NCBI RefSeq assembly: GCF_013315695.1
Contig: NZ_CP054353.1
From: Escherichia coli
GTDB taxonomy: Bacteria > Pseudomonadota > Gammaproteobacteria > Enterobacterales > Enterobacteriaceae
DNA: 64,000 nucleotides
Strand: one strand, 5' to 3'
Made by a program: the position numbers and the translations under genes. How positions within the stretch are numbered: position 1 is the first letter of the stretch; the number at the start of each line of letters is the position of its first letter. Below are positions 13,711 to 58,158 of this stretch, one piece after another. The notes below the pieces were generated by a model. It made no database searches and was not told where the DNA came from. It saw only the letters and a list, made by a program, of their open reading frames with translations.

Positions 13711-13719
13711 GGAATAGTT

Positions 13720-14847: not shown

Positions 14848-14861
14848 TTTAAGCTAAAAAT

Positions 14862-15926: not shown

Positions 15927-15977
15927 ATTTTTTACATATATAAAATTATGTAAGCATATCGCGGGTCAGGTAATTGT

Positions 15978-16982
15978 ATGCGTATCAAATATAAAGATAA
16001 CGGTTATATATTATGTTTTCTATTATGTTTCATTTTGAGCTACTTAGTTTTACTCAAATCTGACTACTTTCCTGCTGATTTTCTGCCATATACAGAAATA
16101 TACGATGGGACATACGGAGAAATCAATAATATTGAGCCTGCCTTTTTATATTTAACACGGTTGTTTCATTATTTAAATTTCCCCTATATATTTTTTGCAA
16201 TGTTAGTTTGTGCCTTATGTTTAAGTTGGAAAATAAAATATGCAAGAAAAATAATTAAAGATAGTTATATATATTTATTCTTGTATGTATATGTATCATT
16301 TTATGTGTTTTTGCATGAAATGACTCAATTGCGCATAGCAATTGCAGTCACTATGTGCTATGTGTCGGTTTATTATTACTTTTATAAAAATTGTATTAAA
16401 CATGCACTGCCATGGATGGTGTTGGCTATTTTGTTTCATTACAGCGCCTTGCTTTTATTTATGTCATTATTTATATACAGTTATAGGAGGTTATTAATAG
16501 TAATTATAGGGTTTGTAATATGTATGAGCTTTTTAAACGTGTATGCAGATACAATTGCACTATATTTGCCAAATGAAAAAATAGTAAATTATTTATATAG
16601 TATTTCATCATCATTAGACAATAGAAATGATTTGGCAATATTCAACCTGAATAATATAATATTTTTATCAATATTTATTTTGATCTTTTATCTTAGCCGA
16701 TATATAAAATTAAATGATAATGAGGCGAAGTTTATTAAGTATGTGCAATGTTCAGGAATATTAGCCTTTTGTATTTTCTTTCTGGCTAGTGGAGTCCCGG
16801 TCATTGCTTATCGAACTGCAGAGTTGCTGCGAATATTTTATCCGATGGCTTTAGTATTAATCCTTTCGCATATAAAAAATAATAATATGCGTTATTTTAT
16901 TGCAGTCATTATAGTTATCCTTTCAGGCTTAATGTTGTTTATAACACTAAGGGCTGTATCAATAGTTGGTCAAGGATTATAA
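15978..16982 (+). CDS. wzy: O-antigen polymerase (Wzy family)
   Basis: 334-aa highly hydrophobic, Tyr/Phe/Leu/Ile-rich multi-TM ORF with low codon adaptation, typical of Wzy. Confidence 0.7.
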   Translation: MRIKYKDNGYILCFLLCFILSYLVLLKSDYFPADFLPYTEIYDGTYGEINNIEPAFLYLTRLFHYLNFPYIFFAMLVCALCLSWKIKYARKIIKDSYIYLFLYVYVSFYVFLHEMTQLRIAIAVTMCYVSVYYYFYKNCIKHALPWMVLAILFHYSALLLFMSLFIYSYRRLLIVIIGFVICMSFLNVYADTIALYLPNEKIVNYLYSISSSLDNRNDLAIFNLNNIIFLSIFILIFYLSRYIKLNDNEAKFIKYVQCSGILAFCIFFLASGVPVIAYRTAELLRIFYPMALVLILSHIKNNNMRYFIAVIIVILSGLMLFITLRAVSIVGQGL

Positions 16983-17943
16983 AATGAATGTTGCTATTTT
17001 GTTGTCTACGTATAATGGCGAAAAATATTTAGAGGAACAACTGGATTCATTGCTGCTTCAAAGTTATCAGGATTTTGTAGTGTATATCCGTGATGACGGA
17101 TCATCTGATAGAACTGTAAATATAATAAACCAATACGTAATGAAAGATAACAGATTTATTAACGTGGGTAATTCAGAAAATCTTGGTTGTGCTGCTTCGT
17201 TTATTAATTTATTAAGAAATGCTTCAGCCGATATTTATATGTTTTGTGACCAAGATGATTATTGGCTTCCGAATAAATTACAGCGTGCTGTGGATTATTT
17301 TTCGGCTATTGATCCTTTACAACCTACCTTGTATCATTGCGATCTAAGCGTTGTTGATGAAAAACTTAATATTATACAAAATTCATTTTTGCAGCATCAG
17401 AAAATGTCAGCGTATGATTCAATGAGAAAAAATAATCTTTTCATACAAAATTTTGTTGTTGGTTGTTCATGTGCTGTTAATGCTTCACTTGCGGAATTTG
17501 TTCTTTCGCGAATTGGAGAGCAGCATGTAAAAATGATAGCTATGCATGACTGGTGGTTAGCCGTGACTGCAAAACTTTTTGGTCGAATCCATTTTGATAA
17601 TACTCAAACGATTCTTTATCGACAACATCAGGGCAATGTATTAGGTGCAAAATCATCAGGTATGATGCGTTTTATTCGATTAGGATTAAATGGGCAAGGG
17701 ATTTCGCGAGTAGTATCTTTTAGAAAAAAAGTTTGTGCGCAAAATAAGCTTCTTTTAGATGTCTATGATAAAGATTTAAATCTTGAGCAAAAAAAATCTA
17801 TCAGGCTTGTAATTGAGGGCCTTAAAGAGAACTCTTCAATTGCTGACCTTTTAAAATGTTTCTATCATGGTAGCTATATGCAAGGTTTTAAACGTAATCT
17901 TGCCTTAATATATTCAGTTCTTTACACAAAAAAAAGAAGATAG
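16966..17943 (+). CDS. glycosyltransferase family 2 (probable rhamnosyltransferase)
   Basis: 325-aa ORF, N-terminal VAILLSTYNGEKYLEEQLDSLLLQ..DDGSSD GT-A motif. Confidence 0.8.
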   Translation: MVKDYKMNVAILLSTYNGEKYLEEQLDSLLLQSYQDFVVYIRDDGSSDRTVNIINQYVMKDNRFINVGNSENLGCAASFINLLRNASADIYMFCDQDDYWLPNKLQRAVDYFSAIDPLQPTLYHCDLSVVDEKLNIIQNSFLQHQKMSAYDSMRKNNLFIQNFVVGCSCAVNASLAEFVLSRIGEQHVKMIAMHDWWLAVTAKLFGRIHFDNTQTILYRQHQGNVLGAKSSGMMRFIRLGLNGQGISRVVSFRKKVCAQNKLLLDVYDKDLNLEQKKSIRLVIEGLKENSSIADLLKCFYHGSYMQGFKRNLALIYSVLYTKKRR

Positions 17944-17952
17944 TGTATCCTT

Positions 17953-19017
17953 ATGAAAAAAATTGCTATTATCGGTACTGTTGGCATACCAGCATCATAT
18001 GGCGGATTTGAAACATTAGTTGAAAATTTAACAAGATACAATTCCTCGGGAGTTGAATATAATGTTTTTTGTTCATCGTTTCACTACAAATCCCACCAAA
18101 AAAAACATAATGGGGCCCGTTTAATTTATATTCCGCTTAAAGCCAATGGATGGCAGAGCATTGCGTATGACATAATTTCGTTAGCATATTCTATTTTTTT
18201 GAAGCCTGATGTGATTCTGATTTTAGGGGTTTCTGGTTGTTCATTTTTGCCTTTCTTCAAACTCTTAACACGCGCTAAGTTTATTACTAATATTGATGGC
18301 CTGGAATGGCGAAGAGATAAATGGAATTCAAAAGTGAAACGTTTCTTAAAATTTTCAGAAAAAATCGCAGTTCAATATTCGGATGTCGTTATTACGGATA
18401 ATGAGGCAATTTCTGAGTACGTTTTTAACGAGTATAATAAAGATAGCCGAGTTATTGCCTATGGAGGGGATCATGCATGGTTAAATACTGAGGATGTATT
18501 TACAACAAGAAATTATAAAAGCGATTACTACCTTTCTGTATGTCGTATCGAACCCGAAAACAATGTAGAATTAATTTTAAAAACATTTTCAAAGCTAAAA
18601 TATAAAATAAAATTTATTGGAAATTGGAATGGCAGCGAGTTTGGAAAGAAACTTAGGCTGCATTATTCTAACTATCCAAATATTGAAATGATTGATCCGA
18701 TTTATGATCTTCAACAATTATTTCACTTACGAAATAATTGCATAGGATATATACATGGTCATTCGGCTGGAGGAACAAACCCTTCTTTAGTCGAGGCAAT
18801 GCATTTTAGTAAACCTATATTTGCATATGATTGTAAGTTTAATAGGTACACTACTGAAAATGAAGCATGTTATTTTTCTAATGAATCTGACCTCGCAGAG
18901 AAAATCATAATGCATTGTGAGCTATCATTAGGTGTCTCTGGCACGAAAATGAAAGAAATTGCTAACCAGAAATACACTTGGAGACGAATAGCAGAAATGT
19001 ATGAGGATTGCTATTAA
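17953..19017 (+). CDS. glycosyltransferase (DUF1972/GT1-type)
   Basis: 354-aa ORF, N-terminal KKIAIIGTVGIPASYGGFET motif; last gene before gnd. Confidence 0.75.
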   Translation: MKKIAIIGTVGIPASYGGFETLVENLTRYNSSGVEYNVFCSSFHYKSHQKKHNGARLIYIPLKANGWQSIAYDIISLAYSIFLKPDVILILGVSGCSFLPFFKLLTRAKFITNIDGLEWRRDKWNSKVKRFLKFSEKIAVQYSDVVITDNEAISEYVFNEYNKDSRVIAYGGDHAWLNTEDVFTTRNYKSDYYLSVCRIEPENNVELILKTFSKLKYKIKFIGNWNGSEFGKKLRLHYSNYPNIEMIDPIYDLQQLFHLRNNCIGYIHGHSAGGTNPSLVEAMHFSKPIFAYDCKFNRYTTENEACYFSNESDLAEKIIMHCELSLGVSGTKMKEIANQKYTWRRIAEMYEDCY

Positions 19018-19121
19018 CTCTGTTAAACTTCAAATCTTTTACAATATATGGCATGACTATAAGCGCATTAATTGTTTTTCAAGCCGCTCTCGCGGTGACC
19101 ACCCCCTGACAGGAGTAAACA

Positions 19122-20528
19122 ATGTCAAAGCAACAGATCGGCGTCGTCGGTATGGCAGTGATGGGGCGCAACCTTGCGCTCAACATCGAAAGCCGTGGTT
19201 ATACCGTCTCTATTTTCAACCGTTCCCGTGAAAAGACGGAAGAAGTGATTGCCGAAAATCCAGGCAAGAAACTGGTTCCTTACTATACGGTGAAAGAGTT
19301 TGTTGAATCTCTGGAAACGCCTCGTCGCATCCTGTTAATGGTGAAAGCAGGTGCAGGCACGGATGCTGCTATTGATTCCCTCAAACCATATCTCGATAAA
19401 GGTGACATCATCATTGATGGTGGCAATACCTTCTTCCAGGACACCATTCGTCGTAACCGTGAACTTTCTGCCGAAGGCTTTAACTTCATTGGTACCGGTG
19501 TCTCCGGTGGTGAAGAAGGCGCGCTGAAAGGTCCTTCTATTATGCCTGGTGGGCAGAAAGATGCCTATGAACTGGTTGCACCAATCCTGACCAAAATCGC
19601 CGCAGTAGCTGAAGACGGGGAGCCATGCGTTACCTATATTGGTGCCGATGGCGCAGGCCATTATGTGAAGATGGTTCACAACGGTATTGAATACGGCGAT
19701 ATGCAGCTGATTGCTGAAGCCTATTCTCTGCTTAAAGGTGGCTTGAACCTTTCCAACGAAGAACTGGCGCAGACCTTTACCGAGTGGAATAACGGTGAAC
19801 TGAGCAGCTACCTGATTGACATCACTAAAGACATCTTCACTAAAAAAGATGAAGACGGTAACTACCTGGTTGATGTGATTCTGGATGAAGCGGCTAACAA
19901 AGGTACCGGTAAATGGACCAGCCAGAGCGCGCTGGATCTCGGTGAACCGCTGTCGCTGATTACCGAGTCTGTGTTTGCACGTTATATCTCTTCTCTGAAA
20001 GATCAGCGTGTTGCCGCATCTAAAGTTCTCTCTGGCCCGCAAGCGCAGCCAGCAGGCGATAAAGATGAGTTCATCGAAAAAGTTCGCCGTGCACTGTATC
20101 TGGGCAAAATCGTTTCTTACGCTCAGGGCTTCTCTCAACTGCGTGCGGCGTCTGAAGAGTACAACTGGGATCTGGACTACGGCGAAATCGCGAAGATTTT
20201 CCGTGCTGGCTGCATCATCCGTGCGCAGTTCCTGCAGAAAATCACCGATGCTTATGCCGAAAATCCGCAGAGCGCTAACCTGCTGCTGGCTCCGTACTTC
20301 AAGCAAATCGCCGATGACTACCAGCAGGCGCTGCGCGATGTCGTCGCTTACGCGGTACAGAACGGTATCCCGGTTCCGACCTTCGCCGCTGCGGTTGCCT
20401 ATTATGACAGCTACCGCGCCGCTGTTCTGCCTGCGAACCTGATCCAGGCACAGCGTGACTATTTCGGTGCGCATACTTATAAGCGCATTGATAAAGAAGG
20501 TGTGTTCCATACCGAATGGCTGGATTAA
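19122..20528 (+). CDS. gnd: 6-phosphogluconate dehydrogenase, decarboxylating
   Basis: 468-aa [25 protein letters not shown]-terminus; conserved location next to the O-antigen cluster. Confidence 0.97.
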
Positions 20529-39008: not shown

Positions 39009-39092
39009 CCTTTCTTTTGCAGCAGACTGGCAGGAGTGCGAGTCTGCTCGCATAATCAACACTCATTCCTTGTGGTTTTAATATTGCAACTA

Positions 39093-39106
39093 TACTGTAT
39101 ATAAAA
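39093..39106 (+). promoter_or_regulatory. left half of a split LexA box (TACTGT + spacer ATATAAAA) with the overlapping candidate sbmC promoter -10 TATACT
   Basis: Joined to 40992..41005 it reconstitutes TACTGTATATAAAAACAGTA (CTGT-N8-ACAG). Confidence 0.7.
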
Positions 39107-39205
39107 GGGTCTTCCCCTGTTGTGGTGGGTGGTACATAATTGAGTGATTTTCAAACACCACACAGTACCTTTATGGTGTCTCTTTTTACATGAGAGGGAA
39201 TTCTT

Positions 39206-39724
39206 ATGAGTGTGCCGCAAACAAAAGCTGAACTGCTTTTAGCTATTGATAAAAATTTTAGTAAATTAATTAGTTACCTCAACACAATCCCACCAGAAAT
39301 TACTTCAGATAAATCAATGGACGGACACGCCAAAGGAACGGAGATGAGTGTTCGTGATCTCGTTTCGTATCTGCTTGGATGGAATGCTCTTGTTGTAAAG
39401 TGGATCGCTTCTGATGCTAAAGGTCTGCCTGTCGATTTTCCGGAAACTGGCTATAAATGGAATCAGCTTGGCCTTCTTGCTCAAAAATTTTACTCAGATT
39501 ACAGTGAGTTAAGTTATGAGTTGTTAGTAGCTGAACTTCAGACTGTAAAAAATGAGATTGTGAACCTTATTAATGATCGTACCGATGATATTTTGTATGG
39601 AAGACCATGGTACACAAAATGGACGATGGGGAGAATGATCTCATTTAACACATCTTCGCCTTACGCCAACGCTAATGGAAGATTAAGAAAGTGGGCAAAA
39701 AATAATAATATCAGTTTAAAGTAA
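39206..39724 (+). CDS. ClbS/DfsB-like (DUF1706) protein, putative colibactin/DNA-damage self-protection protein; passenger gene of the ISL3 element
   Basis: 172-aa ORF with good RBS (gagaggga); shares with remembered ClbS the motifs HAKGT, VSYLxGW, LGxLAQKFY, YGxPWYxKWTxGRMIxFNTxSPYxNAxGRL. Confidence 0.6.
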   Translation: MSVPQTKAELLLAIDKNFSKLISYLNTIPPEITSDKSMDGHAKGTEMSVRDLVSYLLGWNALVVKWIASDAKGLPVDFPETGYKWNQLGLLAQKFYSDYSELSYELLVAELQTVKNEIVNLINDRTDDILYGRPWYTKWTMGRMISFNTSSPYANANGRLRKWAKNNNISLK

Positions 39725-39742
39725 GCTTCAGAATGAAATTAT

Positions 39743-40963
39743 ATGGACGAAAAATCCCTCTATGCCCATATCCTTAACCTGACTGCACCATGGCAGGTTA
39801 AATCCCTTACCCTCGATGAAAATGCAGGTTCCGTTACTGTTACAGTCGGAATTGCTGAAAATACTCAGTTAACCTGTCCGACCTGCAGGAAATCCTGTTC
39901 TGTTCACGATCACCGACATCGTAAATGGCGCCACCTTGATACCTGCCAGTTCATGACATTAGTAGAAGCCGATGTTCCCCGCGTTATGTGCCCGGAGCAT
40001 GGCTGCCAGACTCTGCCTGTACCGTGGGCAGGTTCCGGCAGTCGGTACACTCTGCTGTTCGAATCGTTCGTGCTCTCATGGCTTAAAATCAGCACCGTTG
40101 ATGCGGTCAGAAAACAACTTAAACTTAGCTGGAATGCCGTTGACGGCATCATGACCCGCGCGGTTAAGCGAGGCCTGTCGCGGATTAAAAAGCCTTTATC
40201 AGTGCGTCATATGAATGTAGACGAAGTCGCCTTTAAAAAAGGGCATAGGTATATAACCGTGGTATCTGATCGCGACGGGCGGGCACTGGCATTAACCGAT
40301 GATCGTGGCACAGAGAGTCTTGCCAGCTATCTCCGTTCGCTTACTGACAGTCAGTTGTTGGCCATCAAAACACTGTCGATGGACATGAATGCGGGCTATA
40401 TAAGAGCAGCGCGTATCCATTTACCCAATGCGGTCGAGAAAATCGCCTTCGATCGCTTCCATGTGGCGAAGCAACTGGGCGAAGTGGTTGATAAAACCCG
40501 CCAGAATGAACATCCGCACCTCCCTGTTGAAAGTCGTCGTCAGGCCAAAGGTACCCGCTTCCTGTGGCAGTACAGCGACAAATGGATGACTGAGTCCCGG
40601 CAGGAAAAGCTGATGTGGTTGCGGGAACAGATGCAACAGACAAGCCAGTGCTGGACACTGAAAGAGCTGGCAAAAAATATCTGGGATCGCCCCTGGAGCA
40701 CAGAACGCAGGAATGACTGGTTGCAGTGGATATCGCTGGCGTCTGAATGTGATGTGCCGATGATGAAAAACGCAGCGAAAACCATTAAAAAACGGTTATA
40801 CGGAATACTGAATGCAATGCGTCATCGCGTCTCGAATGGAAATGCGGAGGCGCTGAACAGCAAGATCAGACTGCTGAGGATAAAGGCCAGGGGATACCGA
40901 AACCGGGAACGCTTTAAACTGGGAGTTATGTTCCACTATGGGAAACTGAATATGGCGTACTGA
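39743..40963 (+). CDS. ISL3-family transposase
   Basis: 406-aa ORF; N-terminal Cys-rich zf-ISL3-like region ([14 protein letters not shown]) followed by a DDE_Tnp_ISL3-like domain; stop codon abuts the right inverted repeat. Confidence 0.85.
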
Positions 40964-40991
40964 GTCTTCCCACCATGATCGGGGAAGACCC

Positions 40992-41005
40992 ATATAAAAA
41001 CAGTA
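40992..41005 (+). promoter_or_regulatory. right half of the split LexA box (duplicated spacer ATATAAAA + ACAGTA) upstream of sbmC
   Basis: Sits 15 bp upstream of the sbmC ATG; see 39093..39106. Confidence 0.7.
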
Positions 41006-41019
41006 TTAATGGGGGCGTC

Positions 41020-41493
41020 ATGAACTACGAGATTAAGCAGGAAGATAAACGTACCGTTGCAGGTTTCCATCTCGTTGGCCCGTGGGAACAGACGGTAAAG
41101 AAAGGCTTTGAGCAGTTGATGATGTGGATAGATAGCAAAAATATTGTGCCGAAGGAGTGGGTTGCTGTCTATTACGACAATCCAGATGAAACACCCGCCG
41201 AAAAATTACGCTGCGACACCGTCGTGACGGTGCCGAATAACTTTACGCTCCCCGAAAACAGTGAGGGCGTCATTCTGACAGAAATTTCAGGTGGTCAGTA
41301 TGCGGTGGCGGTGGCTCGTGTAGTCGGTGATGATTTTGCTAAACCCTGGTATCAGTTCTTTAATAGCCTCTTGCAGGACAGTGCCTATGAAATGTTACCA
41401 AAGCCCTGCTTCGAGGTTTACTTGAACAATGGCGCGGAAGATGGGTACTGGGATATCGAAATGTATGTTGCGGTGCAGCCAAAACATCACTAA
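41020..41493 (+). CDS. sbmC: DNA gyrase inhibitor SbmC (GyrI)
   Basis: ORF 40975..41493; ATG at 41020 gives [24 protein letters not shown] (157 aa). Confidence 0.92.
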
Positions 41494-43733: not shown

Positions 43734-44147
43734 GCGTCAATACGGTGCTCCGTTGACGCTTACTTTAATCCGTTTTCTGAGCTTAGATTTTTCTGTTCCT
43801 ACCCAGACCGTGGATTTGGAATTCATTTTTTGTCAGGTCAATGCTAATCGTTAAAACGGCCATAACGCACCTCCACTGGAAGGTTTATCAGTAATATCCT
43901 ACCGTTGCTTCATGGTCGGGGCGTCCATTCCATTATTATCGGTTTTCCTTTCTGTTTATAAATGAAAACGCCAGCTGTATTCAGGCTGGCGTCAGGGGAA
44001 ATGAAGCCTGTTGAGTGAGATTCACCGGTTCTGGTGCAGAAGCTGCAGATGGCGCAGGGTAAGGACATCTTCTCTTGCCTGCTTAATACAGGACAACAGT
44101 GCTGTTTCTGTGGTTAATGGCACTATACCCTGTATCACTGCATTGTC

Positions 44148-44342
44148 TTACAGCAACTGGTGAGGGCTGGCATAAGTTGCCGGTGTTTCGGTAGAGTCAC
44201 GGCCATCCACCACGCGGAGTGAATAACCGTTTTCAGCGGCCTTATTAATCAGTTCAGTGATATTAACACCATCAATGTCAACGACAATGTGCCCCATATC
44301 CAGCGCCTGTACGTTAACGCTGTCGGCTTCCAGTGTCATCAT
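44148..44342 (-). CDS. yeeW: CP4-44-type prophage protein YeeW
   Basis: 64-aa ORF overlapping the cbtA stop; matches remembered YeeW. Confidence 0.7.
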   Translation of the reverse strand: MMTLEADSVNVQALDMGHIVVDIDGVNITELINKAAENGYSLRVVDGRDSTETPATYASPHQLL

Positions 44343-44713
44343 TTCGCCTCCGGATACTTACCCAGGGTAATGTTATTTACCGTTCTGTAATTGTCGCGGG
44401 TCATCAGGCCGGTCGCCCTGCGAGCCCGGAGGATATCGATGCTGTTTATTAACTGAGAGCGGGTACAGGCGCTGAATCCCGGCTGGTCGGTACGCACCAG
44501 CGCGTATTTTTCCACGAGAAAGTTCACCGCATCACACAGTGAAATGCCTGCCTCAATATGCTGCTCAATCACACGTTCATCGGCAAACGGTGTGTCATTC
44601 AGTGTGAGGCCGTAGTGCTGGTCCAGCAGTCGGGACAGCAGTATCTGCCAGATTTCAACAGGAGACGGGCGAGAACTGGCCGCCTGCCCGGGTAATACAG
44701 GTAATGTTTTCAT
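44339..44713 (-). CDS. cbtA: CbtA toxin (cytoskeleton-binding toxin, YeeV family)
   Basis: 124-aa ORF MKTLPVLPGQAASSRPSPVEIWQILLSRLLDQHYGLTLNDTPFADE.. matches remembered CbtA. Confidence 0.92.
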   Translation of the reverse strand: MKTLPVLPGQAASSRPSPVEIWQILLSRLLDQHYGLTLNDTPFADERVIEQHIEAGISLCDAVNFLVEKYALVRTDQPGFSACTRSQLINSIDILRARRATGLMTRDNYRTVNNITLGKYPEAK

Positions 44714-44801
44714 ACTGAAGATTTTCCTGATATGCAGATATAAAAATGGGAAAGTGGCGTGGTGAAAACACCAGGCCGTAGCAGAAGGCTATTCTGGAGA
44801 G

Positions 44802-45170
44802 TTAATTTTTCATTTCGGGCGTCGGATAAACAGCCAGATAAACGTAACCACAACTGCTGAGGGTATCGGCTTCACAGGCCAGCCCCTTCGCATACAGCGT
44901 GACGGTATGCTGAGTGCGGGGATTCAGTTCACCGCTGGTGAGCATGAGTTCCAGTTGTTTCATCAGCAGCGGAAAGGCCTGGTCCAGGGGGTACGCATCT
45001 GCATCGCTGGACAGGCCTCTGATACCGGCGCGGTCGGCAAGGTAATGCAACCGGTTACCCTCCTGCACCAGACGTGCCCCGAAACAGGGCGTCACGGTGC
45101 AGGGCAGCCCCCACTAGGGGCGGTCGTGATTGTCGTCGGGAAGTGTTGTCCCGGGGAGTGTGTCTGACAC
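44802..45170 (-). pseudogene. cbeA: CbeA (YeeU) antitoxin gene with premature amber codon at codon 19
   Basis: From GTG 45170: VSDTLPGTTLPDDNHDRP-TAG-WGLPCTVTPCFGARLVQEG..; TAG at 45114..45116 where I remember Trp in K-12; longest ORF 44802..45095 would need internal GTG reinitiation. Confidence 0.8.
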
Positions 45171-45243
45171 GATAAAATCCTTACAGAAAATCGGTTAAGA
45201 ATGGTCCGGTGGTGGCGATAATTCTGCTCATCAGAATTCCCAC

Positions 45244-45465
45244 TCAGTTCAGGGTGACGCTCATCAGTCGGACATACGGGCCAAAACTGTCCTTACGGCG
45301 TTCAGCAAACACGGCCAGCACACCGGGAATATCCTGCACTTCACGACCGGTATACGCTTCAGCACTGCCGTGCCAGCGGTATTTACCGGTACAGAACGGA
45401 AAAAGACGGGATGTCGGATGTTGTTGGTGAATACGCATGGCTTCACCACGGGTGATAATTTTCAT
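45244..45465 (-). CDS. yeeT: DUF987 protein YeeT
   Basis: 73-aa ORF MKIITRGEAMRIHQQHPTSRLFPFCTGKYRWHG.. Confidence 0.85.
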   Translation of the reverse strand: MKIITRGEAMRIHQQHPTSRLFPFCTGKYRWHGSAEAYTGREVQDIPGVLAVFAERRKDSFGPYVRLMSVTLN

Positions 45466-45527
45466 AATGGGATACCTCTGAAGACAGAAGATAAAAGTGA
45501 AAACAGGTGTGATGTGGTTGTGACGGG

Positions 45528-45974
45528 TTAAAGCAGACCATGTTCGGCAAAGGAGAAAACCTGGCTGCCACCGACTATCAGATGGTCCGGCACCCGGATA
45601 TCCACCAGGCCCAGTGCCTGTACCAGACGTTCCGTGATAAGGCGGTCTGCCTTGCTGGGTGTGACTTCACCGGACGGGTGATTGTGTGCCAGCACCACGG
45701 CAGCGGCATTGTGGTACAGGGCGCGTTTAATCACTTCCCGGGGATGGACTTCCGTGCGGTTGATGGTGCCGGTGAAGAGGGTTTCACCGGCAATCAGCTG
45801 ATTCTGGTTATTCAGATACAGCACCCGGAATTCTTCACGCTCCAGTCCCGCCATGTTCAGAATCAGCCATTCCCGTGCCGCACGGGTGGAGGTGAAGGCC
45901 ACGCCGGGTTCATGAAGATGGCGGTCCAGGGTTTTCAGGGCCCGCTGAATGAGGCTGCGCTCGCCGGGCGTCAT
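45528..45974 (-). CDS. yeeS: RadC-like JAB-domain protein YeeS (start uncertain; alternative starts at 46004 and 46019)
   Basis: ORF 45528..46019 with HNHPSG JAMM-like motif. Confidence 0.8.
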   Translation of the reverse strand: MTPGERSLIQRALKTLDRHLHEPGVAFTSTRAAREWLILNMAGLEREEFRVLYLNNQNQLIAGETLFTGTINRTEVHPREVIKRALYHNAAAVVLAHNHPSGEVTPSKADRLITERLVQALGLVDIRVPDHLIVGGSQVFSFAEHGLL

Positions 45975-46019
45975 CTCTCCGGGCAGAAAGGAAAGCTGCT
46001 GCATTGTCCCTGCCTCCAT

Positions 46020-46484
46020 TCAGTCGATGATGCGCATAATGGCGCTGCATTCCGGATGCTGCAGGGCATAATCCCGCAGCCGGTAATAATGAACCGTCAT
46101 GGCATAATTCTCTGTACGACAGGCGTGATGGCTGTACGCCATCAGACAGGCGGCAATGCCGGCGGCTTCCGGGCTCATTTCAGCGCGGTTACCGTTCATG
46201 ACGTTAAACAGCACCCATGTTTCGTCATCATCGTCATCCGGTTCGGGTGCCATAAATGCGCCACCGTTGTTCAGGGTGTACAGATTCCAGATACCACCGC
46301 AGTAGTCTTCATACAGACGGTCCATCCAGCCGAAGACCCGGGGCTCCAGGGTCACCCACTGTGGAATGAGGCCAAAATGCTGCGGCCAGAAGCTGATGCG
46401 CTGTTCATCAGGGACTATGGTGGCAACCAGTTGTTGCAGGCCAGTCTCCGGTGCACAGGCCGAAGAGGTGGTGTTCTGAGACAA
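46020..46484 (-). CDS. antirestriction protein (KlcA/ArdB-like); 5' end abuts the IS element, N-terminus possibly altered
   Basis: 154-aa ORF with TTG start only 5 nt from the IS right end; acidic DDDDDE stretch; position equivalent to yfjX/yafX-type genes in CP4-family prophages. Confidence 0.65.
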   Translation of the reverse strand: MSQNTTSSACAPETGLQQLVATIVPDEQRISFWPQHFGLIPQWVTLEPRVFGWMDRLYEDYCGGIWNLYTLNNGGAFMAPEPDDDDDETWVLFNVMNGNRAEMSPEAAGIAACLMAYSHHACRTENYAMTVHYYRLRDYALQHPECSAIMRIID

Positions 46485-46496
46485 TGTTTGTAGTGG

Positions 46497-47747
<1,251 letters not shown>

Positions 47748-47785
47748 GTTTCCTCTGACTCGTGTCAGTCGGTCTCTGGTTGTAT

Positions 47786-47824
47786 CCACGGACCGCACTC
47801 TTGACATAAGAGTGCGGTCCGTGG
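47786..47824. repeat. perfect 17-bp inverted repeat with 5-nt loop
   Basis: ccacggaccgcactctt-gacat-aagagtgcggtccgtgg, 40 bp outside the IS3 end; no adjacent U-tract. Confidence 0.6.
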
Positions 47825-49250
47825 AAAACGGAGTTGAAAAAATGGTGTCTGAAAGAAGGTACCATCATTGCGATGACAAACACTTTGGCGTGGATAATGT
47901 AATTAATTGCTGAAATTGACCGTATATGCGGTAAGACTCATATCAGTATCAGGTCCGGTTAATTGCTGATACTGACATAAACTTTTTACAAAAGGATGAA
48001 TGCAGAAGGTTACTCTAATGGCCAGAGTGATGACAATGATGGTCAGACGTTGACCTGCAGAAACTGCATTTTAATTGGTCTATAAAGTCTGCAAGAGGAA
48101 TCAGGGTCAGATCAGTGAGTCTTATCGCGGCCCGAAGCTATGACTGAAAGAAGGCTGGATACAGAATTGCAACAATTTGGCAATGTCAGAACACAGAAGC
48201 TTTGCAAGCAGGTGAAAGGTTATGTCTAGAAAAAGGAGTATATCAGAATACATCTACTGATGTACAAAACACAACAATAGCTTCATGATATATAAATACG
48301 TGATGACGAGTGGTACTCCGCATGGTTATTTAACTTCTCAGCACCACTAATGATCCTGAGCAACTTCGTATTTGGGCCATTGCCATGGAGTAGAAAGCTG
48401 TGTCTGAGAATGCAGAATTTGAGAAAAGAATTCGCTTTCTTGGAGAGCTTCTGAAAATGGCACGCTAACAACGCTTTGTTAAAAAATGTGAATCACTTGC
48501 CGAGGCTGCATTTTCTATTCGAGGAGAATGTTGACGTAGATATTACAGAAATCTCAGCGCATCAGGATAAACTGCTACCTTAGGTCAACCACCAAAAGAA
48601 AATACAATACGTCCAGTTTGTATGCCTTTAATAACACATCTTTTAAATGTTGAAGAATTATCCCGCCTGCTGAAGAACGTTGCTCTGAGTGTGATAAACC
48701 TTTTTATTCTTGATGATGTCAGCGAGAAGATGGAATATATCCCCGACTGGGTCGTGGTTACCCGGTTAAACATCTGGTGGCGCTAATAAATCTGGCAAGT
48801 CACATTCTGTTGAATGCTGTGACAGTGCCTTACCGAGAGAGCGAAATTGTGGTGTTCTAGTGCATAGTCGCCACCATTCCGGATAATTTTATTGCGTTGT
48901 TTTACAACTTCTTTTACAGCGCAGATCTGTCGCTGACGTTGAATCAATAGCCTGGATTTCAGAACACAATGCCCGTTTGCTGGTTGGTCCGGCAGTAGCA
49001 TTAATTCATTATCTGAATGAAATGTGTCAATCCACAGAAACCGCTGTCAATGACGCATTTTGTCGGACGTTAACACGAGAAAGTCTGGCTATTCCGTAAT
49101 GCCATCTTATTTCGTAATGGATTGAGAATGCTGGATTTTTAATTATATTACGCGCAGTATTAATCGCGTAAATGTTTTGCGGTCAGCAACGGTGGGGGAT
49201 CCATTGCTCTGTTCAATGAATACCATCATACATTTGAATCAGGAGTCGGT

Positions 49251-50547: not shown

Positions 50548-51627
50548 ATGCAAATACTTGCCGATTTACTGAATACGATCCCAGCCATCAATTCTGCCGC
50601 TATGTCGCGTGCACAACGGCATGTTGACGGGTTACTCAAACCTGTTGGTAGCCTGGGAAAGCTGGAGGCGCTTGCCATACAACTGGCAGGAATGCCGGGG
50701 TTGAATGGCATACCGCATGTGGGCAAAAAAGCAGTACTGGTTATGTGTGCCGATCACGGCGTCTGGGAGGAAGGGGTCGCTATTTCTCCAAAAGAAGTGA
50801 CAGCCATACAGGCTGAAAATATGACCCGTGGAACAACCGGCGTGTGTGTGCTGGCAGCACAAGCGGGCGCTAACGTCCACGTAATTGATGTTGGTATTGA
50901 TACTGCTGAGCCTATCCCCGGGCTTATCAACATGCGTGTCGCACGAGGTAGCGGCAATATTGCTTCAGCTCCGGCAATGAGTCGCCGTCAGGCTGAAAAG
51001 TTGCTTTTGGACGTCATATGTTATACGCGGGAGCTGGCAAAAAACGGTGTCACGCTGTTTGGTGTAGGTGAACTGGGGATGGCAAACACGACACCGGCAG
51101 CGGCAATAGTCAGCACAATCACTGGCCGGGATCCTGAAGAAGTGGTTGGGATTGGCGCAAACCTGCCGACAGATAAACTGGCTAATAAAATTGATGTTGT
51201 GCGTCGGGCGATTACGTTGAATCAACCAAATCCTCAGGATGGTGTTGATGTCCTGGCAAAAGTGGGTGGATTTGATTTGGTCGGAATAGCTGGAGTGATG
51301 TTAGGTGCTGCTTCCTGCGGTTTACCCGTGTTGCTGGATGGATTTCTTTCTTATGCTGCTGCGCTCGCAGCCTGCCAGATGTCTCCTGCAATCAAACCGT
51401 ATCTCATTCCTTCTCACTTGTCGGCAGAAAAAGGCGCGCGTATAGCGCTCTCGCATTTGGGGCTGGAGCCTTATCTCAATATGGATATGCGTTTAGGTGA
51501 GGGGAGTGGTGCAGCTCTGGCGATGTCCATCATCGAAGCTGCTTGTGCGATATACAACAACATGGGCGAACTTGCTGCCAGTAATATTGTTCTACCGGGG
51601 AATACGACTTCTGATTTGAACAGCTAA
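50548..51627 (+). CDS. cobT: nicotinate-nucleotide--dimethylbenzimidazole phosphoribosyltransferase
   Basis: 359-aa ORF following cobS. Confidence 0.93.
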
Positions 51628-51691
51628 AAACGAAAAGTCTGATAAAAGCTATACTTATCGGATAGTATTCGCGACTTAGGAAAGGGACATG

Positions 51692-52624
51692 ATGCGTCGT
51701 GTAAATATTCTTTGCTCATTTGCTCTGCTTTTTGCCAGCCAAAATAGCCTGGCGGTAACTTATCCATTACCTCCAGAGGGTAGCCGTTTAGTGGGGCAGT
51801 CGCTTACTGTAACTGTTCCTGATCACAATACTCAGCCGCTGGAGACTTTTGCCGCACAATACGGGCAAGGGTTAAGTAATATGCTGGAAGCGAATCCGGG
51901 CGCTGATGTTTTTTTGCCGAAGCCTGGCTCACAACTCACCATTCCGCAGCAACTGATTTTGCCCGCCACTGTTCGTAAAGGGATTGTGGTTAACGTCGCT
52001 GAAATGCGTCTTTATTACTATCCGCCAGACAGTAATACAGTGGAAGTCTTTCCTATTGGTATCGGCCAGGCTGGGCGAGAAACCCCGCGTAACTGGGTGA
52101 CTACCGTTGAACGTAAACAAGAAGCACCAACCTGGACGCCAACGCCGAACACCCGGCGCGAATATGCGAAACGAGGGGAGAGTTTGCCCGCATTTGTTCC
52201 TGCGGGGCCCGATAACCCCATGGGGCTGTACGCGATTTATATTGGCAAGTTGTATGCCATCCACGGTACCAATGCCAATTTTGGTATTGGGCTCCGTGTA
52301 AGTCAGGGCTGTATTCGTCTGCGTAATGACGATATCAAATATCTGTTTGATAATGTTCCTGTAGGCACTCGTGTACAAATTATTGATCAGCCAGTGAAAT
52401 ACACAACGGAACCGGATGGTTCAAAGTGGCTGGAAGTTCATGAGCCGCTGTCGCGCAATCGTGCAGAATATGAGTCTGACCGAAAAGTGCCATTGCCGGT
52501 AACCCCATCTTTGCGGGCGTTTATCAACGGGCAAGAAGTTGATGTAAATCGCGCAAATGCTGCGTTGCAACATCGATCGGGAATGCCTGTGCAAATTAGT
52601 TCTGGTTCAAGACAGATGTTTTAA
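51692..52624 (+). CDS. ldtA: L,D-transpeptidase (ErfK/LdtA)
   Basis: ORF 51689..52624; [16 protein letters not shown] signal peptide; YkuD-domain. Confidence 0.9.
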
Positions 52625-52649
52625 GAGCGTTGGTAATTAGAAAGTAAAA

Positions 52650-52675
52650 AGCCTGCTCGAAAGCAGGCTTTTTTG
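52650..52675. terminator. bidirectional terminator between ldtA and tRNA-Asn
   Basis: agcctgct-cgaa-agcaggct hairpin flanked by an A-run and a T6 run. Confidence 0.8.
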
Positions 52676-52679
52676 AATT

Positions 52680-52755
52680 TGGCTCCTCTGACTGGACTCG
52701 AACCAGTGACATACGGATTAACAGTCCGCCGTTCTACCGACTGAACTACAGAGGA
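52680..52755 (-). tRNA. asnV: tRNA-Asn (GUU)
   Basis: 76-nt reverse complement of TCCTCTGTAGTTCAGTCGGTAGAACGGCGGACTGTTAATCCGTATGTCACTGGTTCGAGTCCAGTCAGAGGAGCCA; anticodon loop CUGUUAA; symbol by K-12 synteny. Confidence 0.95.
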
Positions 52756-53081
52756 ATCGTGTGAACGGGGCGCATATTAATGGCAGTGCATGGTGATGTC
52801 AAAGGGTGAAATGCATTTTTTTGTTTGTTTGCTGACAATTTCAACAAAGTGGTGAGCTTTCAATCTTATTGGGTAATGAACCATCGTGGTGCATACCCCC
52901 CTTTTATAGGGCAGGTGAATGCGACTGCTGATAAAAAGGGCCAATGACGAATCTATCATAATCTCTTATTTGACAGTTGGTTAGCTTGCGCATCAACGCT
53001 AAAATAGAACTGGCAAGCATCTTGCATTCTGGTTGTAAGTAATGGCGGCACTTGGGCCGATTCTTAAAAACCGGAGGCAAC

Positions 53082-53999
53082 ATGAACTTCAGACGCCTGA
53101 AATACTTCGTAAAAATTGTAGATATTGGTAGCCTGACCCAGGCTGCTGAAGTATTGCATATCGCACAACCAGCGCTCAGCCAGCAGGTTGCCACACTGGA
53201 AGGTGAGTTAAATCAACAGCTTTTGATTCGCACAAAACGGGGCGTTACGCCAACAGGCGCCGGAAAAATTCTCTATACCCATGCACGGGCCATTTTACGT
53301 CAGTGTGAGCAGGCCCAACTGGCGGTGCATAACGTTGGTCAGTCATTATCGGGGCAAGTCTCGATTGGCTTTGCGCCAGGAACCGCTGCGTCATCCATCA
53401 CCATGCCCTTATTACAGGCGGTTCGCGCTGAATTCCCGGAGGTCGTTATCTATCTTCATGAAAATAGTGGTGCAGTGCTTAACGAAAAACTGATAAATCA
53501 CCAACTCGATATGGCGGTGATTTATGAGCATTCCCCTGTGGCTGGGGTATCCAGTCAGGCTTTGCTGAAAGAAGATCTTTTCCTGGTAGGAACTCAAGAT
53601 TGCCCGGGGCAAAGCGTTGATGTTAATGCTATTGCGCAAATGAACCTTTTTCTCCCCAGTGATTACAGCGCTGTTAGACTTCGTGTTGATGAGGCTTTTT
53701 CCCTACGGCGGCTCACGGCAAAAGTCATTGGTGAAATTGAGTCTATTGCCACGCTTACTGCAGCGATTGCCAGCGGCATGGGCGTTGCAGTATTACCTGA
53801 ATCGGCTGCGCGTTCGTTATGTGGCGCAGTAAATGGGTGGATGTCACGCATTACCACTCCTTCAATGAGTCTCTCTTTGTCCTTAAATTTACCCGCCAGA
53901 GCAAACTTGTCACCACAGGCACAGGCAGTGAAAGAGTTGTTAATGTCAGTGATTAGTTCTCCAGTGATGGAAAAAAGGCAGTGGCAATTGGTGAGCTAA
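53082..53999 (+). CDS. nac: nitrogen assimilation control protein (LysR family)
   Basis: ORF 53052..53999; ATG at 53082 gives MNFRRLKYFVKIVDIGSLTQAAEVLHIAQPALSQQV. Confidence 0.92.
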   Translation: MNFRRLKYFVKIVDIGSLTQAAEVLHIAQPALSQQVATLEGELNQQLLIRTKRGVTPTGAGKILYTHARAILRQCEQAQLAVHNVGQSLSGQVSIGFAPGTAASSITMPLLQAVRAEFPEVVIYLHENSGAVLNEKLINHQLDMAVIYEHSPVAGVSSQALLKEDLFLVGTQDCPGQSVDVNAIAQMNLFLPSDYSAVRLRVDEAFSLRRLTAKVIGEIESIATLTAAIASGMGVAVLPESAARSLCGAVNGWMSRITTPSMSLSLSLNLPARANLSPQAQAVKELLMSVISSPVMEKRQWQLVS

Positions 54000-54100
54000 G
54001 CGTTATATCGGGATGGAATAAGATGCGGGTTTTTATTATTTGTTATGCCGGGCATTAGACTTTAACAATAACGGGATATCTGAACTGCCCGGAGTTTACC

Positions 54101-55051
54101 GTGAATTTCCAACAACTAAAGATAATCCGCGAGGCTGCACGTCAGGATTACAACCTGACAGAGGTTGCGAATATGCTTTTTACCTCACAGTCAGGCGTTA
54201 GCCGTCATATTCGGGAACTGGAGGATGAACTTGGCATCGAAATATTTGTTCGACGAGGTAAGCGACTGCTGGGCATGACTGAACCGGGCAAAGCATTACT
54301 GGTCATTGCAGAACGCATTCTGAATGAAGCCAGTAATGTTCGTCGGCTCGCAGACCTGTTTACCAACGATACGTCTGGCGTTCTCACTATTGCAACGACG
54401 CATACTCAGGCACGTTATAGCTTGCCTGAGGTCATTAAAGCTTTTCGCGAACTTTTCCCGGAGGTTCGGCTGGAGCTAATCCAGGGTACACCACAGGAAA
54501 TTGCGACGTTGTTGCAAAATGGCGAAGCTGATATTGGTATCGCCAGCGAGCGTTTGAGTAATGACCCGCAGCTCGTCGCCTTCCCGTGGTTTCGTTGGCA
54601 CCATAGTTTGCTTGTTCCACTCGATCATCCCTTGACGCAAATTACACCGTTGACGCTGGAATCAATAGCGAAGTGGCCGTTAATTACTTACCGACAGGGA
54701 ATTACGGGGCGCTCACGCATTGATGACGCATTTGCCCGCAAAGGTTTGCCGGCAGATATTGTATTAAGTGCACAGGATTCTGCTGTCATTAAAACCTATG
54801 TTGCTCTTGGGCTTGGGATCGGATTAGTTGCCGAACAATCCAGCGGCGAACAAGAGGAAAAGAATTTAATCCGCCTGGATACGCGGCATCTTTTCGATGC
54901 TAATACTGTCTGGTTGGGACTGAAGCGAGGGCAACTTCAGCGTAACTATGTCTGGCGCTTTCTGGAACTTTGTAATGCAGGACTGTCAGTTGAGGATATC
55001 AAGCGCCAGGTGATGGAAAACAGTGAAGAGGAAATTGATTATCAGATATAG
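54101..55051 (+). CDS. cbl: CysB-like LysR-family regulator Cbl
   Basis: 316-aa ORF MNFQQLKIIREAARQDYNLTEVANMLFTSQSGVSRHIRELE. Confidence 0.92.
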   Translation: MNFQQLKIIREAARQDYNLTEVANMLFTSQSGVSRHIRELEDELGIEIFVRRGKRLLGMTEPGKALLVIAERILNEASNVRRLADLFTNDTSGVLTIATTHTQARYSLPEVIKAFRELFPEVRLELIQGTPQEIATLLQNGEADIGIASERLSNDPQLVAFPWFRWHHSLLVPLDHPLTQITPLTLESIAKWPLITYRQGITGRSRIDDAFARKGLPADIVLSAQDSAVIKTYVALGLGIGLVAEQSSGEQEEKNLIRLDTRHLFDANTVWLGLKRGQLQRNYVWRFLELCNAGLSVEDIKRQVMENSEEEIDYQI

Positions 55052-55054
55052 CAA

Positions 55055-55080
55055 AAAGCCCGCTATAAAAGCGGGCTTTT
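55055..55080. terminator. bidirectional terminator between cbl and tRNA-Asn
   Basis: aagcccgc-tataaa-gcgggctttt hairpin. Confidence 0.75.
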
Positions 55081-55088
55081 CAGAAATT

Positions 55089-55164
55089 TGGCTCCTCTGA
55101 CTGGACTCGAACCAGTGACATACGGATTAACAGTCCGCCGTTCTACCGACTGAACTACAGAGGA
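55089..55164 (-). tRNA. asnU: tRNA-Asn (GUU)
   Basis: Identical 76-nt tRNA-Asn sequence on the minus strand. Confidence 0.95.
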
Positions 55165-55324
55165 ATCGCTGTTGAGGCACATCTTAACGGCGAAAAATAT
55201 TTTGTCAAACCCGATTTTTAAATTTCCCAACTGTTTGCCGTTTCTATCAACAGTTTGTTGCATTTGCAGACAATTTGTTGGCGAAAATCTTTGCAGCTTT
55301 GCTGATTCTCCCTCATCATTTGAA

Positions 55325-56812
55325 ATGTGGTTTCACTTTCTGCAATTAAGGTCGGCTTTGAATATCTCCTCTGCTTTACGCCAGGTTGTTCACGGCACTC
55401 GCTGGCACTCTAAACGCAAGAGCTACAAAGTGTTGTTCTGGCGCGAGATAACCCCGCTTGCTGTTCCTATCTTCATGGAGAACGCCTGTGTCCTGTTGAT
55501 GGGGGTCCTGAGCACTTTTCTGGTCAGCTGGCTGGGAAAAGATGCGATGGCCGGCGTGGGGTTGGCGGACAGCTTCAATATGGTCATTATGGCTTTTTTT
55601 GCAGCTATCGATCTTGGTACTACTGTCGTTGTAGCATTTAGTCTCGGTAAGCGAGATCGACGACGAGCGAGGGTGGGGACGCGGCAGTCATTGGTGATCA
55701 TGACGTTGTTTGCCGTACTGTTGGCAACGCTAATTCATCATTTTGGCGAACAAATTATTGATTTCGTCGCGGGTGATGCCACGACAGACGTTAAAGCACT
55801 GGCGTTGACTTATCTGGAGCTGACCGTACTCAGTTATCCAGCAGCTGCCATCACTCTTATTGGTAGCGGGGCACTTCGTGGTGCAGGGAATACGAAAATA
55901 CCGCTACTGATTAACGGTAGCCTGAATATTCTTAATATTATTATTAGCGGCATATTGATTTACGGCCTTTTCTCCTGGCCGGGACTGGGATTTGTCGGGG
56001 CTGGGTTGGGTTTAACCATTTCTCGTTATATTGGCGCAGTTGCAATTTTGTGGGTGCTGGCGATTGGTTTTAATCCTGCGCTAAGGATTTCATTAAAGAG
56101 CTATTTTAAACCGCTGAATTTTAGCATTATCTGGGAAGTCATGGGGATTGGTATTCCAGCGAGTGTCGAATCAGTGCTATTTACCAGTGGTCGGTTATTA
56201 ACCCAAATGTTCGTTGCCGGGATGGGGACCAGCGTTATTGCCGGAAATTTTATCGCGTTTTCAATTGCGGCTCTTATCAACTTACCCGGAAGTGCGCTCG
56301 GTTCTGCTTCTACGATCATTACAGGCCGAAGGTTGGGGGTAGGGCAGATAGCGCAAGCAGAGATTCAGTTGCGGCATGTGTTCTGGCTGTCCACTCTTGG
56401 ATTAACGGCCATCGCCTGGCTAACGGCTCCCTTTGCCGGGGTTATGGCATCGTTTTACACCCAGGATCCACAGGTTAAACACGTCGTTGTGATTCTGATT
56501 TGGCTAAATGCTTTATTTATGCCTATTTGGTCCGCCTCATGGGTGCTACCCGCTGGATTTAAGGGTGCTCGTGATGCCCGTTACGCCATGTGGGTTTCTA
56601 TGTTGAGCATGTGGGGTTGCCGGGTTGTAGTCGGTTATGTGCTGGGAATCATGCTTGGCTGGGGTGTGGTTGGTGTCTGGATGGGAATGTTTGCCGACTG
56701 GGCTGTGCGGGCCGTGCTGTTTTACTGGCGAATGGTTACTGGACGTTGGCTGTGGAAATACCCTCGACCCGAGCCGCAAAAGTGTGAAAAAAAGCCAGTT
56801 GTGTCGGAATAA
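55325..56812 (+). CDS. yeeO: MATE-family efflux transporter YeeO
   Basis: ORF 55172..56812; ATG at 55325 gives MWFHFLQLRSALNISSALRQVVHG (495 aa); 12-TM MATE. Confidence 0.9.
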   Translation: MWFHFLQLRSALNISSALRQVVHGTRWHSKRKSYKVLFWREITPLAVPIFMENACVLLMGVLSTFLVSWLGKDAMAGVGLADSFNMVIMAFFAAIDLGTTVVVAFSLGKRDRRRARVGTRQSLVIMTLFAVLLATLIHHFGEQIIDFVAGDATTDVKALALTYLELTVLSYPAAAITLIGSGALRGAGNTKIPLLINGSLNILNIIISGILIYGLFSWPGLGFVGAGLGLTISRYIGAVAILWVLAIGFNPALRISLKSYFKPLNFSIIWEVMGIGIPASVESVLFTSGRLLTQMFVAGMGTSVIAGNFIAFSIAALINLPGSALGSASTIITGRRLGVGQIAQAEIQLRHVFWLSTLGLTAIAWLTAPFAGVMASFYTQDPQVKHVVVILIWLNALFMPIWSASWVLPAGFKGARDARYAMWVSMLSMWGCRVVVGYVLGIMLGWGVVGVWMGMFADWAVRAVLFYWRMVTGRWLWKYPRPEPQKCEKKPVVSE

Positions 56813-56912
56813 ACGACAAAGTGCAGATTATTTCAGCAAACGATTTCAAATTTAAAAAACAGGCTTTGACATTGTGGATGGGCATCGCTAATATTCGCCT
56901 CGTTCTCACGAT

Positions 56913-56988
56913 TCCTCTGTAGTTCAGTCGGTAGAACGGCGGACTGTTAATCCGTATGTCACTGGTTCGAGTCCAGTCAGAGGAGCCA
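56913..56988 (+). tRNA. asnW: tRNA-Asn (GUU)
   Basis: TCCTCTGTAGTTCAGTCGGTAGAACGGCGGACTGTTAATCCGTATGTCACTGGTTCGAGTCCAGTCAGAGGAGCCA on the plus strand. Confidence 0.95.
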
Positions 56989-57441
56989 AATTTTAGTTTT
57001 GAGACATCTCTATGAGTCTCAGGACAGTTAAAAAATAAAAATTATTTTTACCCGGTCACTTTGTAAAAAAGTGGCCGGGTTTTTGATTTCTGTGTTTCGT
57101 GCGCTTAATCGAGTCTCACGCTTCAGTGAGCAAATTGCCCCTCCCCAACAGACATCACGATTCACAAGGTCAAAAATTCTGTTCCATGAAGTACCGTACA
57201 AAGATAAAGAGAAAAATGCCTTATGCGGGATGTAGCTGTCGCGTCTTTATCGGGAAACTATACGTAATTGCCACTTTGTCTTCGGTAATCAGAAAAAGAA
57301 GACCTGCCATTTTAATAAATATTATTTCTCTGGGAACGGGGATTTTTTATAAGCAATATGACGAGTTAAACATTATATTTTTATAAGGATTATATGAGAT
57401 TAAAGAAATCTGCCATAAAGACAGATTTCTTTAACATATAA

Positions 57442-58158
57442 TTAGAGATTTGCGACGTTATGATAAACTTTTTGTACATCGTCGTCATCTTCAAGGGCAT
57501 CAACAAGCCCTTCAAAGATTTCTAAATCTTCTGGGGAAAGCTCAACTTCAGATTGAGCAATCATTTCTAATTCTGTTGTTGAGAACTCAGTGATTCCAGC
57601 TGCTTTTAGCGCCGCGATTCCTTTATGAAGGTCAGTAGGTTCAGTATAAATAACAATATTACCTTCTTCTTCAGTTACATCACGAACATCAATTTCAGCT
57701 TCAAGCAAAATTTCAAAAATATGGTCAGGGTCTGTTCCTTTAAATACAATCACCCCCGTATTGTCAAACATATAGCTGACAGAACCTGCCGCTCCGATAT
57801 TGCCGCCTTTTTTATTGAAAATTGTGCGAACGTTAGCAATCGTACGGTTAACATTTGAAGTCAATGTCTCAGCAATAATCATTGAGCCATTAGGACCAAA
57901 GCCTTCATAACGTCCCTGTACGAACGTTTCATCTCCACCGCCTTTGGCTTTATCAATTGCTTTATCAATAACGTGCTTTGGAACTTGTGCCTGCTTTGCA
58001 CGTTCAATAACGAATTTTAAAGATGTGTTTAATTCTGGATCGGGTTCACCTTGTTTGGCAGCAGCATAGATTTCTACACCGAATTTTGCATAAATTTTAG
58101 ACGTTGCACCGTCTTTAGCCGTTTTTTTAGCAACAATATTGGCCCATTTACGTCCCAC
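57442..58158 (-). CDS. yeeN: YebC/PmpR-family transcriptional regulator YeeN
   Basis: 238-aa [30 protein letters not shown].. Confidence 0.9.

Follow-up and report, generated by a model that had tools for sequence, protein, structure and literature searches.

We analyzed a 64-kb stretch of Escherichia coli DNA (contig NZ_CP054353.1; hereafter the window, meaning the whole stretch at its full length) for the state of its asnV-asnU-asnW cluster, three tRNA-Asn genes whose 3' ends are known insertion points for the high-pathogenicity island (HPI), the pks island and related elements. ARAGORN recognized tRNA-Asn(GTT) at all three tRNA genes present in the window, the Rfam tRNA model scored 72.6 bits for each of asnV, asnU and asnW, and the three are 100% identical across 76 nt. 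Between positions 49000 and 61000, Rfam found no known RNA besides these three tRNAs. Over the same interval the window matches E. coli MSB1_4I (NZ_LR898874.1) at 100% identity and is nearly identical to isolate AF3 (NZ_OZ547117.1), and these two genomes are again the best matches for the remainder. In MSB1_4I, the RefSeq annotation gives the order cobU-cobS-cobT-ldtA, tRNA-Asn, nac-cbl, tRNA-Asn, yeeO, tRNA-Asn, yeeN-amn-shiA. A first-pass annotation of this DNA had described asnV, asnU and asnW as identical 76-nt genes lying between ldtA and nac, cbl and yeeO, and yeeO and yeeN, respectively. Both the genes with their positions (ARAGORN, Rfam, identity) and the names and flanks (MSB1_4I annotation; asnV, asnU and asnW are what these copies are called in K-12 MG1655) are borne out; coordinates are collected in Table 1.

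The P4-like tyrosine integrases of the HPI, pks and related elements attack the 3' end of a tRNA-Asn gene, which is their attachment site. Integration reconstitutes the tRNA gene, brings the integrase gene to a position roughly 160 bp downstream of it, and duplicates 16-17 nt of the tRNA 3' end at the distal border of the island. As positive controls we examined occupied sites in other genomes. In strains MSB1_4I, 25POL, A29 and 19KM1831, the signature of an occupied site is the tRNA gene, about 160 bp of DNA, an integrase gene of 1,263-1,272 bp, and then cargo. At asnT in MSB1_4I and AF3, the ~160 bp are followed by a 1,263-bp tyrosine integrase gene and by ybtS through fyuA, identifying the HPI. 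Strains A29 (at asnU) and 19KM1831 (at asnW) have the same kind of integrase followed by RHS cargo. In the pks+ strain 25POL, the tRNA gene is followed by the integrase and clbS through clbA, and the repeat TGGCTCCTCTGACTGG stands at the far end of the island.

None of these marks of an asn-integrated island (HPI, pks or ICEEc1 type) is carried by the asn sites of the window. Even when 2 mismatches are allowed, the 16-nt tRNA 3' end CCAGTCAGAGGAGCCA has no match in the 64 kb outside the three genes (0 matches expected from shuffles), and the window holds no orphan att-type direct repeat, while the same repeat is present in the 25POL control. Searches of the whole 64-kb window by tblastn gave no match to three asn-type P4-like integrases, nor to ClbP, ClbQ, FyuA or YbtS; ClbS was the sole query to match, at 39206-39700, within the ClbS-like gene discussed below. 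No clb or ybt/fyuA cargo was thus found by tblastn beside the three tRNAs, and no integrase gene lies ~160 bp downstream of any tRNA 3' end. Instead, the next gene is reached after 55 bp (ldtA), 37 bp (cbl) and 453 bp (yeeN), compared with 55, 37 and 452 bp in K-12. The K-12 order ldtA/asnV/nac-cbl/asnU/yeeO/asnW/yeeN is preserved without extra DNA, and positions 51689-58158 align to K-12 as a single block of 6,469 columns with 97.1% identity and 5 gap columns. Since none of the integration marks is present, all three are intact, empty attachment sites. The first-pass claim that no pks, HPI or other island is attached at them therefore stands on collinearity with K-12 and on the lack of an att repeat and of tblastn hits to integrase or cargo.

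The 453-bp gap between asnW and yeeN is the best candidate for a decayed island remnant at one of the sites: it is far longer than the other two gaps and has a GC content of 35%, against 46% for the surrounding stretch. Yet K-12 has a 452-bp version of this spacer at 93.2% identity and 25POL has one at 99.8%, neither the left ends of the HPI and pks nor their integrases resemble it, and it holds the asnW terminator. We therefore rejected it as an island relic, and consider a decayed remnant at any of the three sites very improbable.

How common is this state? We compared 3-kb queries centred on each tRNA 3' end with 5,426 complete E. coli genomes, 5,424 of which were matched, and called a site uninterrupted if one place covered at least 80% of the query. 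By this measure asnV is uninterrupted in 4,667 of the 5,424 genomes (86%), asnU in 5,179 (95%) and asnW in 4,970 (92%), and 4,247 genomes carry the entire 12-kb stretch without interruption. Most genomes, ~78-86%, thus have all three sites empty. Among the 757 genomes in which asnV is interrupted, some are accounted for by a cluster of sugar phosphotransferase system (PTS), rpe and hxlB genes, which has no integrase beside the tRNA and takes the place of ldtA on the 3' side of asnV in strains Z1323HEC0477 (L007, 1-9127) and A29 (L008, 1-9113). The genome comparison also bears on whether a real island was lost by assembly collapse at the identical tRNA repeats. Assemblers can be misled by identical repeats, but with a repeat of just 76 nt an island of 30-54 kb would not collapse in long-read assemblies, and the uninterrupted structure recurs in two independent complete assemblies (from a rectal swab in Australia and a blood culture in the UK) as well as in thousands of other complete genomes. 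The chance of such an artifact is negligible.

The pks island requires separate consideration, as its common configuration involves more than a simple insertion. The published 'asnW-asnU-asnV tRNA region' measures 4,309 bp (Auvray et al., 2021; PMC8209727), and the span considered in the first-pass annotation, 52680-56988, is exactly 4,309 bp, the same size as this region. In 25POL, pks lies between ldtA and the yeeO-proximal asn gene, not between yeeO and yeeN, and the 4.3-kb nac-cbl-asnU-yeeO segment is inverted: by BLAST, positions 15788-20104 of the 25POL locus match 56993-52676 of the window in reverse at 99.5% identity, and the ldtA side, including the 16-nt repeat, matches 51623-52695 at 100% identity. 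Because pks in 25POL lies between ldtA and the inverted segment, the empty counterpart of the common pks configuration is split in the window, into the asnV 3' flank on the one hand and the asnW gene with its 5' flank on the other. This inverted-segment configuration is already published (PMC8209727). According to the same survey, rarer pks insertions occur at asnU, asnV and non-tRNA loci, the last in strains of phylogroups A and B1, and the inverted orientation is unique to typical pks+ B2 strains, with the segment uninverted in all pks-negative strains surveyed. The pks-associated inversion (configuration 1A) is not present in the window, which is collinear with K-12.

The orientation of this segment is relevant to a further possibility, namely that the sites were once occupied in an ancestor, for example by pks, and then emptied by precise integrase-mediated excision. 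Such an event would restore attB exactly and hence be invisible in the sequence, and asnT of the lineage does harbour an asn-type integrase, which shares 81% identity with that of pks. The segment is nonetheless uninverted, as in all pks-negative strains of the published survey, and an island-bearing ancestor is not needed for the data. We regard past occupancy followed by excision as unlikely, albeit the least unlikely of the three alternatives weighed here.

The first-pass annotation had also pointed to the fourth copy, asnT, outside the window, and to a genome-wide search for clb and ybt genes. Both were addressed in the closest genomes. In MSB1_4I and AF3, asnT lies ~33 kb past the right end of the window and is occupied by the HPI (int and ybtS to fyuA), whose fyuA end is ~2.4 kb beyond the window end. 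The published survey describes the HPI of E. coli as fixed at asnT and devoid of its right repeat (PMC8209727). For clb, we used a chimeric query, consisting of the 3-kb asnW region plus 1 kb of clbP, and compared the places matched per record with and without clbP. On the MSB1_4I chromosome clbP is absent by this one 1-kb probe, with 4 places either way; as a positive contrast, adding clbP raises the count from 4 to 5 places in genomes whose asnW site is split. Total places are not comparable between the two queries, as the joining distance varies with query length, and no count of pks+ genomes was derived from them. Of the suggested searches, then, the one for ybt genes was positive in both closest genomes, and the one for clb was negative for clbP on the MSB1_4I chromosome. 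The lineage is best described as HPI-positive and pks-negative, with its asnT and pks status transferred from the closest genomes.

Two observations concern the HPI of this lineage. First, both closest genomes, which were assembled independently, have irp2 and irp1 annotated as pseudogenes that contain internal stops and frameshifts (MSB1_4I, L002, 21599-37158; AF3, L011, 14020-29579); judging from these lesions, this lineage may not produce yersiniabactin. Second, the fyuA end of the island adjoins a remnant of yeeJ in MSB1_4I, AF3 and 25POL. This remnant, which occupies 62901-64000 of the window and continues past it, is truncated and frameshifted, as it also is in MSB1_4I, AF3 and pks+ 25POL, whereas yeeJ in K-12 is a full-length 7-kb inverse autotransporter gene.

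Taken together, the window almost certainly presents the ordinary, island-free form of the E. coli asnV-asnU-asnW cluster, in an HPI-positive, pks-negative lineage. Nothing contradicts this conclusion, but it has three limits. A precise excision leaves no scar, so the sites may have been occupied in the past. The status of asnT and pks comes from near-identical genomes, and that of clbP from the MSB1_4I chromosome only and from one 1-kb probe. Finally, insertions smaller than ~2 kb, such as IS1, counted as uninterrupted in the frequency test.

Table 1. Features of the tRNA-Asn cluster and of the ClbS-like gene region, in window coordinates.
Feature	Position	Strand	Basis and remarks
ISEc53 unit	39107-40991		Terminal inverted repeats 39107-39129 and 40969-40991
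ClbS/DfsB-like gene	39206-39724		53.6% protein identity to pks ClbS
ISEc53 transposase gene, ISL3 family	39743-40963		Within the same inverted-repeat pair as the ClbS-like gene
ldtA, core gene 3' of asnV	51689-52624	+	Open reading frame (ORF), MSB1_4I RefSeq annotation
asnV putative terminator hairpin	52646-52673	-	Terminator scan; 12-pair stem, in 55-bp gap between asnV 3' end and ldtA stop
asnV, tRNA-Asn(GTT), intact empty attB	52680-52755	-	ARAGORN, Rfam; flanked by ldtA and nac, like asnV of K-12
Segment bounded by inverted asnV and asnW copies	52680-56988		4,309 bp, K-12 (uninverted) orientation; arms 104 bp at 97% identity
asnV promoter-like site, TTGACA-17-TAATAT	52774-52802	-	Consensus scan, 10/12 matches; putative function
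nac, core gene	53082-53999	+	Annotation transferred from MSB1_4I; ORF end 53999
cbl, core gene 3' of asnU	54101-55051	+	ORF, MSB1_4I annotation
asnU, tRNA-Asn(GTT), intact empty attB	55089-55164	-	ARAGORN, Rfam, identity to other copies
asnU promoter-like site, TTGACA-16-TAAGAT	55181-55208	-	Consensus scan; putative function
yeeO, MATE transporter, core gene	55325-56812	+	MSB1_4I annotation
asnW promoter-like site, TTGACA-17-TAATAT	56866-56894	+	Consensus scan; putative function
asnW, tRNA-Asn(GTT), intact empty attB	56913-56988	+	ARAGORN, Rfam, identity to other copies
asnW-yeeN spacer, conserved core DNA	56989-57441		453 bp, 35% GC; alignment to K-12 and 25POL
asnW putative terminator	57050-57080		Terminator scan; in asnW-yeeN spacer
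yeeN, core gene 3' of asnW	57442-58158	-	ORF, MSB1_4I annotation

Each asn gene seems to be transcribed as a separate small unit, with a predicted near-consensus promoter upstream and a predicted hairpin terminator downstream (Table 1). The -35 element TTGACA is invariant across all four asn copies, and the flanks of the copies diverge outside the gene and the promoter elements. For asnU, a GCCCGCT/AGCGGGC hairpin can be read directly from the sequence in the 37-bp gap to the cbl stop. In pks+ 25POL, the sequence of the asnV terminator hairpin adjoins the 16-nt island repeat.

The window also contains a gene resembling clbS, the pks gene whose product alone matched by tblastn, and the first-pass annotation regarded the empty tRNA-Asn sites as useful context for it. 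The sites are indeed empty, but the proposed relevance does not hold. The ClbS/DfsB-like gene and an ISL3-family transposase gene share one pair of terminal inverted repeats and form an ISEc53 unit, which, in comparison with the empty site of K-12, has inserted and duplicated 8 bp of its target, ATATAAAA. The gene is an ISEc53 passenger, not a leftover of a tRNA-linked or lost pks island, and because it travels within ISEc53, whether the tRNA-Asn sites are occupied says nothing about where it came from. Copies of the 1.9-kb unit with at least 99% identity are present in 656 of the 5,426 genomes, on chromosomes and plasmids and at unrelated sites, for example within fimB. Genes like clbS beside a single ISL3 transposase have also been described on E. 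coli chromosomes and plasmids in a 2025 preprint (10.1101/2025.11.17.686825).

The insertion lies within and splits CTGTATATAAAAACAG, just upstream of sbmC (41020-41493), with flanks at 39092-39106 and 40992-41006. This motif fits the LexA-box consensus CTGT-N8-ACAG, and we take it to be the LexA box of sbmC. As predicted from the sequence, the upstream copy of the likely sbmC promoter would be directed into the ClbS-like gene and would lack half of the operator. The sbmC/ISEc53 junction is shared by 79 genomes, including the divergent strain Z226-5, and other ISEc53 copies match for 8-12 nt past the element end, which suggests that ISEc53 may prefer similar AT-rich targets. One could imagine that a homologue of a colibactin-resistance gene, placed under a de-repressed DNA-damage promoter, was selected in this HPI-positive, pks-negative lineage. 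Compared with target preference alone, we consider such selection doubtful.

Elsewhere in the window, a remnant of a CP4-44-like cryptic prophage spans ~44000-49150 (yeeW, cbtA, a YeeU-family antitoxin gene, yeeT, yeeS and an antirestriction gene). It is interrupted by an IS3-family element, and IS4 and cbi fragments adjoin cobU. This patch of mobile elements lies near the asn cluster and is attached to no tRNA gene. The O-antigen cluster at 12484-16982, whose wzx and wzy belong to the O1 family, is O1-type, and the part of the window that includes it (1-25000) is covered to at least 80% in only ~90 of the 5,426 genomes.

An island-free asn cluster is the usual and already described state of a well-known locus, and nothing about it is new. 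The island status of this lineage, with the HPI at asnT and no pks, is a matter of bookkeeping only. For typing of pks insertion sites, it is worth bearing in mind that the empty counterpart is a hybrid, owing to the known 4.3-kb inversion. The three intact attachment sites could still take an island that targets asn genes.

Comparison with known systems places the window as follows. The yersiniabactin HPI has an integrase of the same P4-like family and targets the same tRNA sequence, but in the closest genomes it resides at asnT and at none of the window's three copies. The common pks configuration '1A', represented by 25POL, uses the same tRNA-Asn attachment site in the same chromosomal neighbourhood; it differs in the inversion and in the ~54 kb (integrase and clbA-clbS) that separate ldtA from the yeeO-proximal asn gene, and the window lacks both. 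The islands of A29 (asnU) and 19KM1831 (asnW) sit at these same attachment sites, with the region in the K-12 orientation as in the window, yet have an integrase ~160 bp downstream of the tRNA and then cargo, whereas the window has neither. The closest counterpart is the asnW-asnU-asnV region of K-12 MG1655 (b1984, b1986, b1989), which has the same three identical tRNA-Asn genes, flanking genes and orientation and differs at the cluster only in point changes and the gap columns of the alignment. Beyond the cluster the two part ways: K-12 MG1655 has no island at asnT and a full-length yeeJ, whereas in the closest relatives of the window asnT is occupied by the HPI and yeeJ is truncated.

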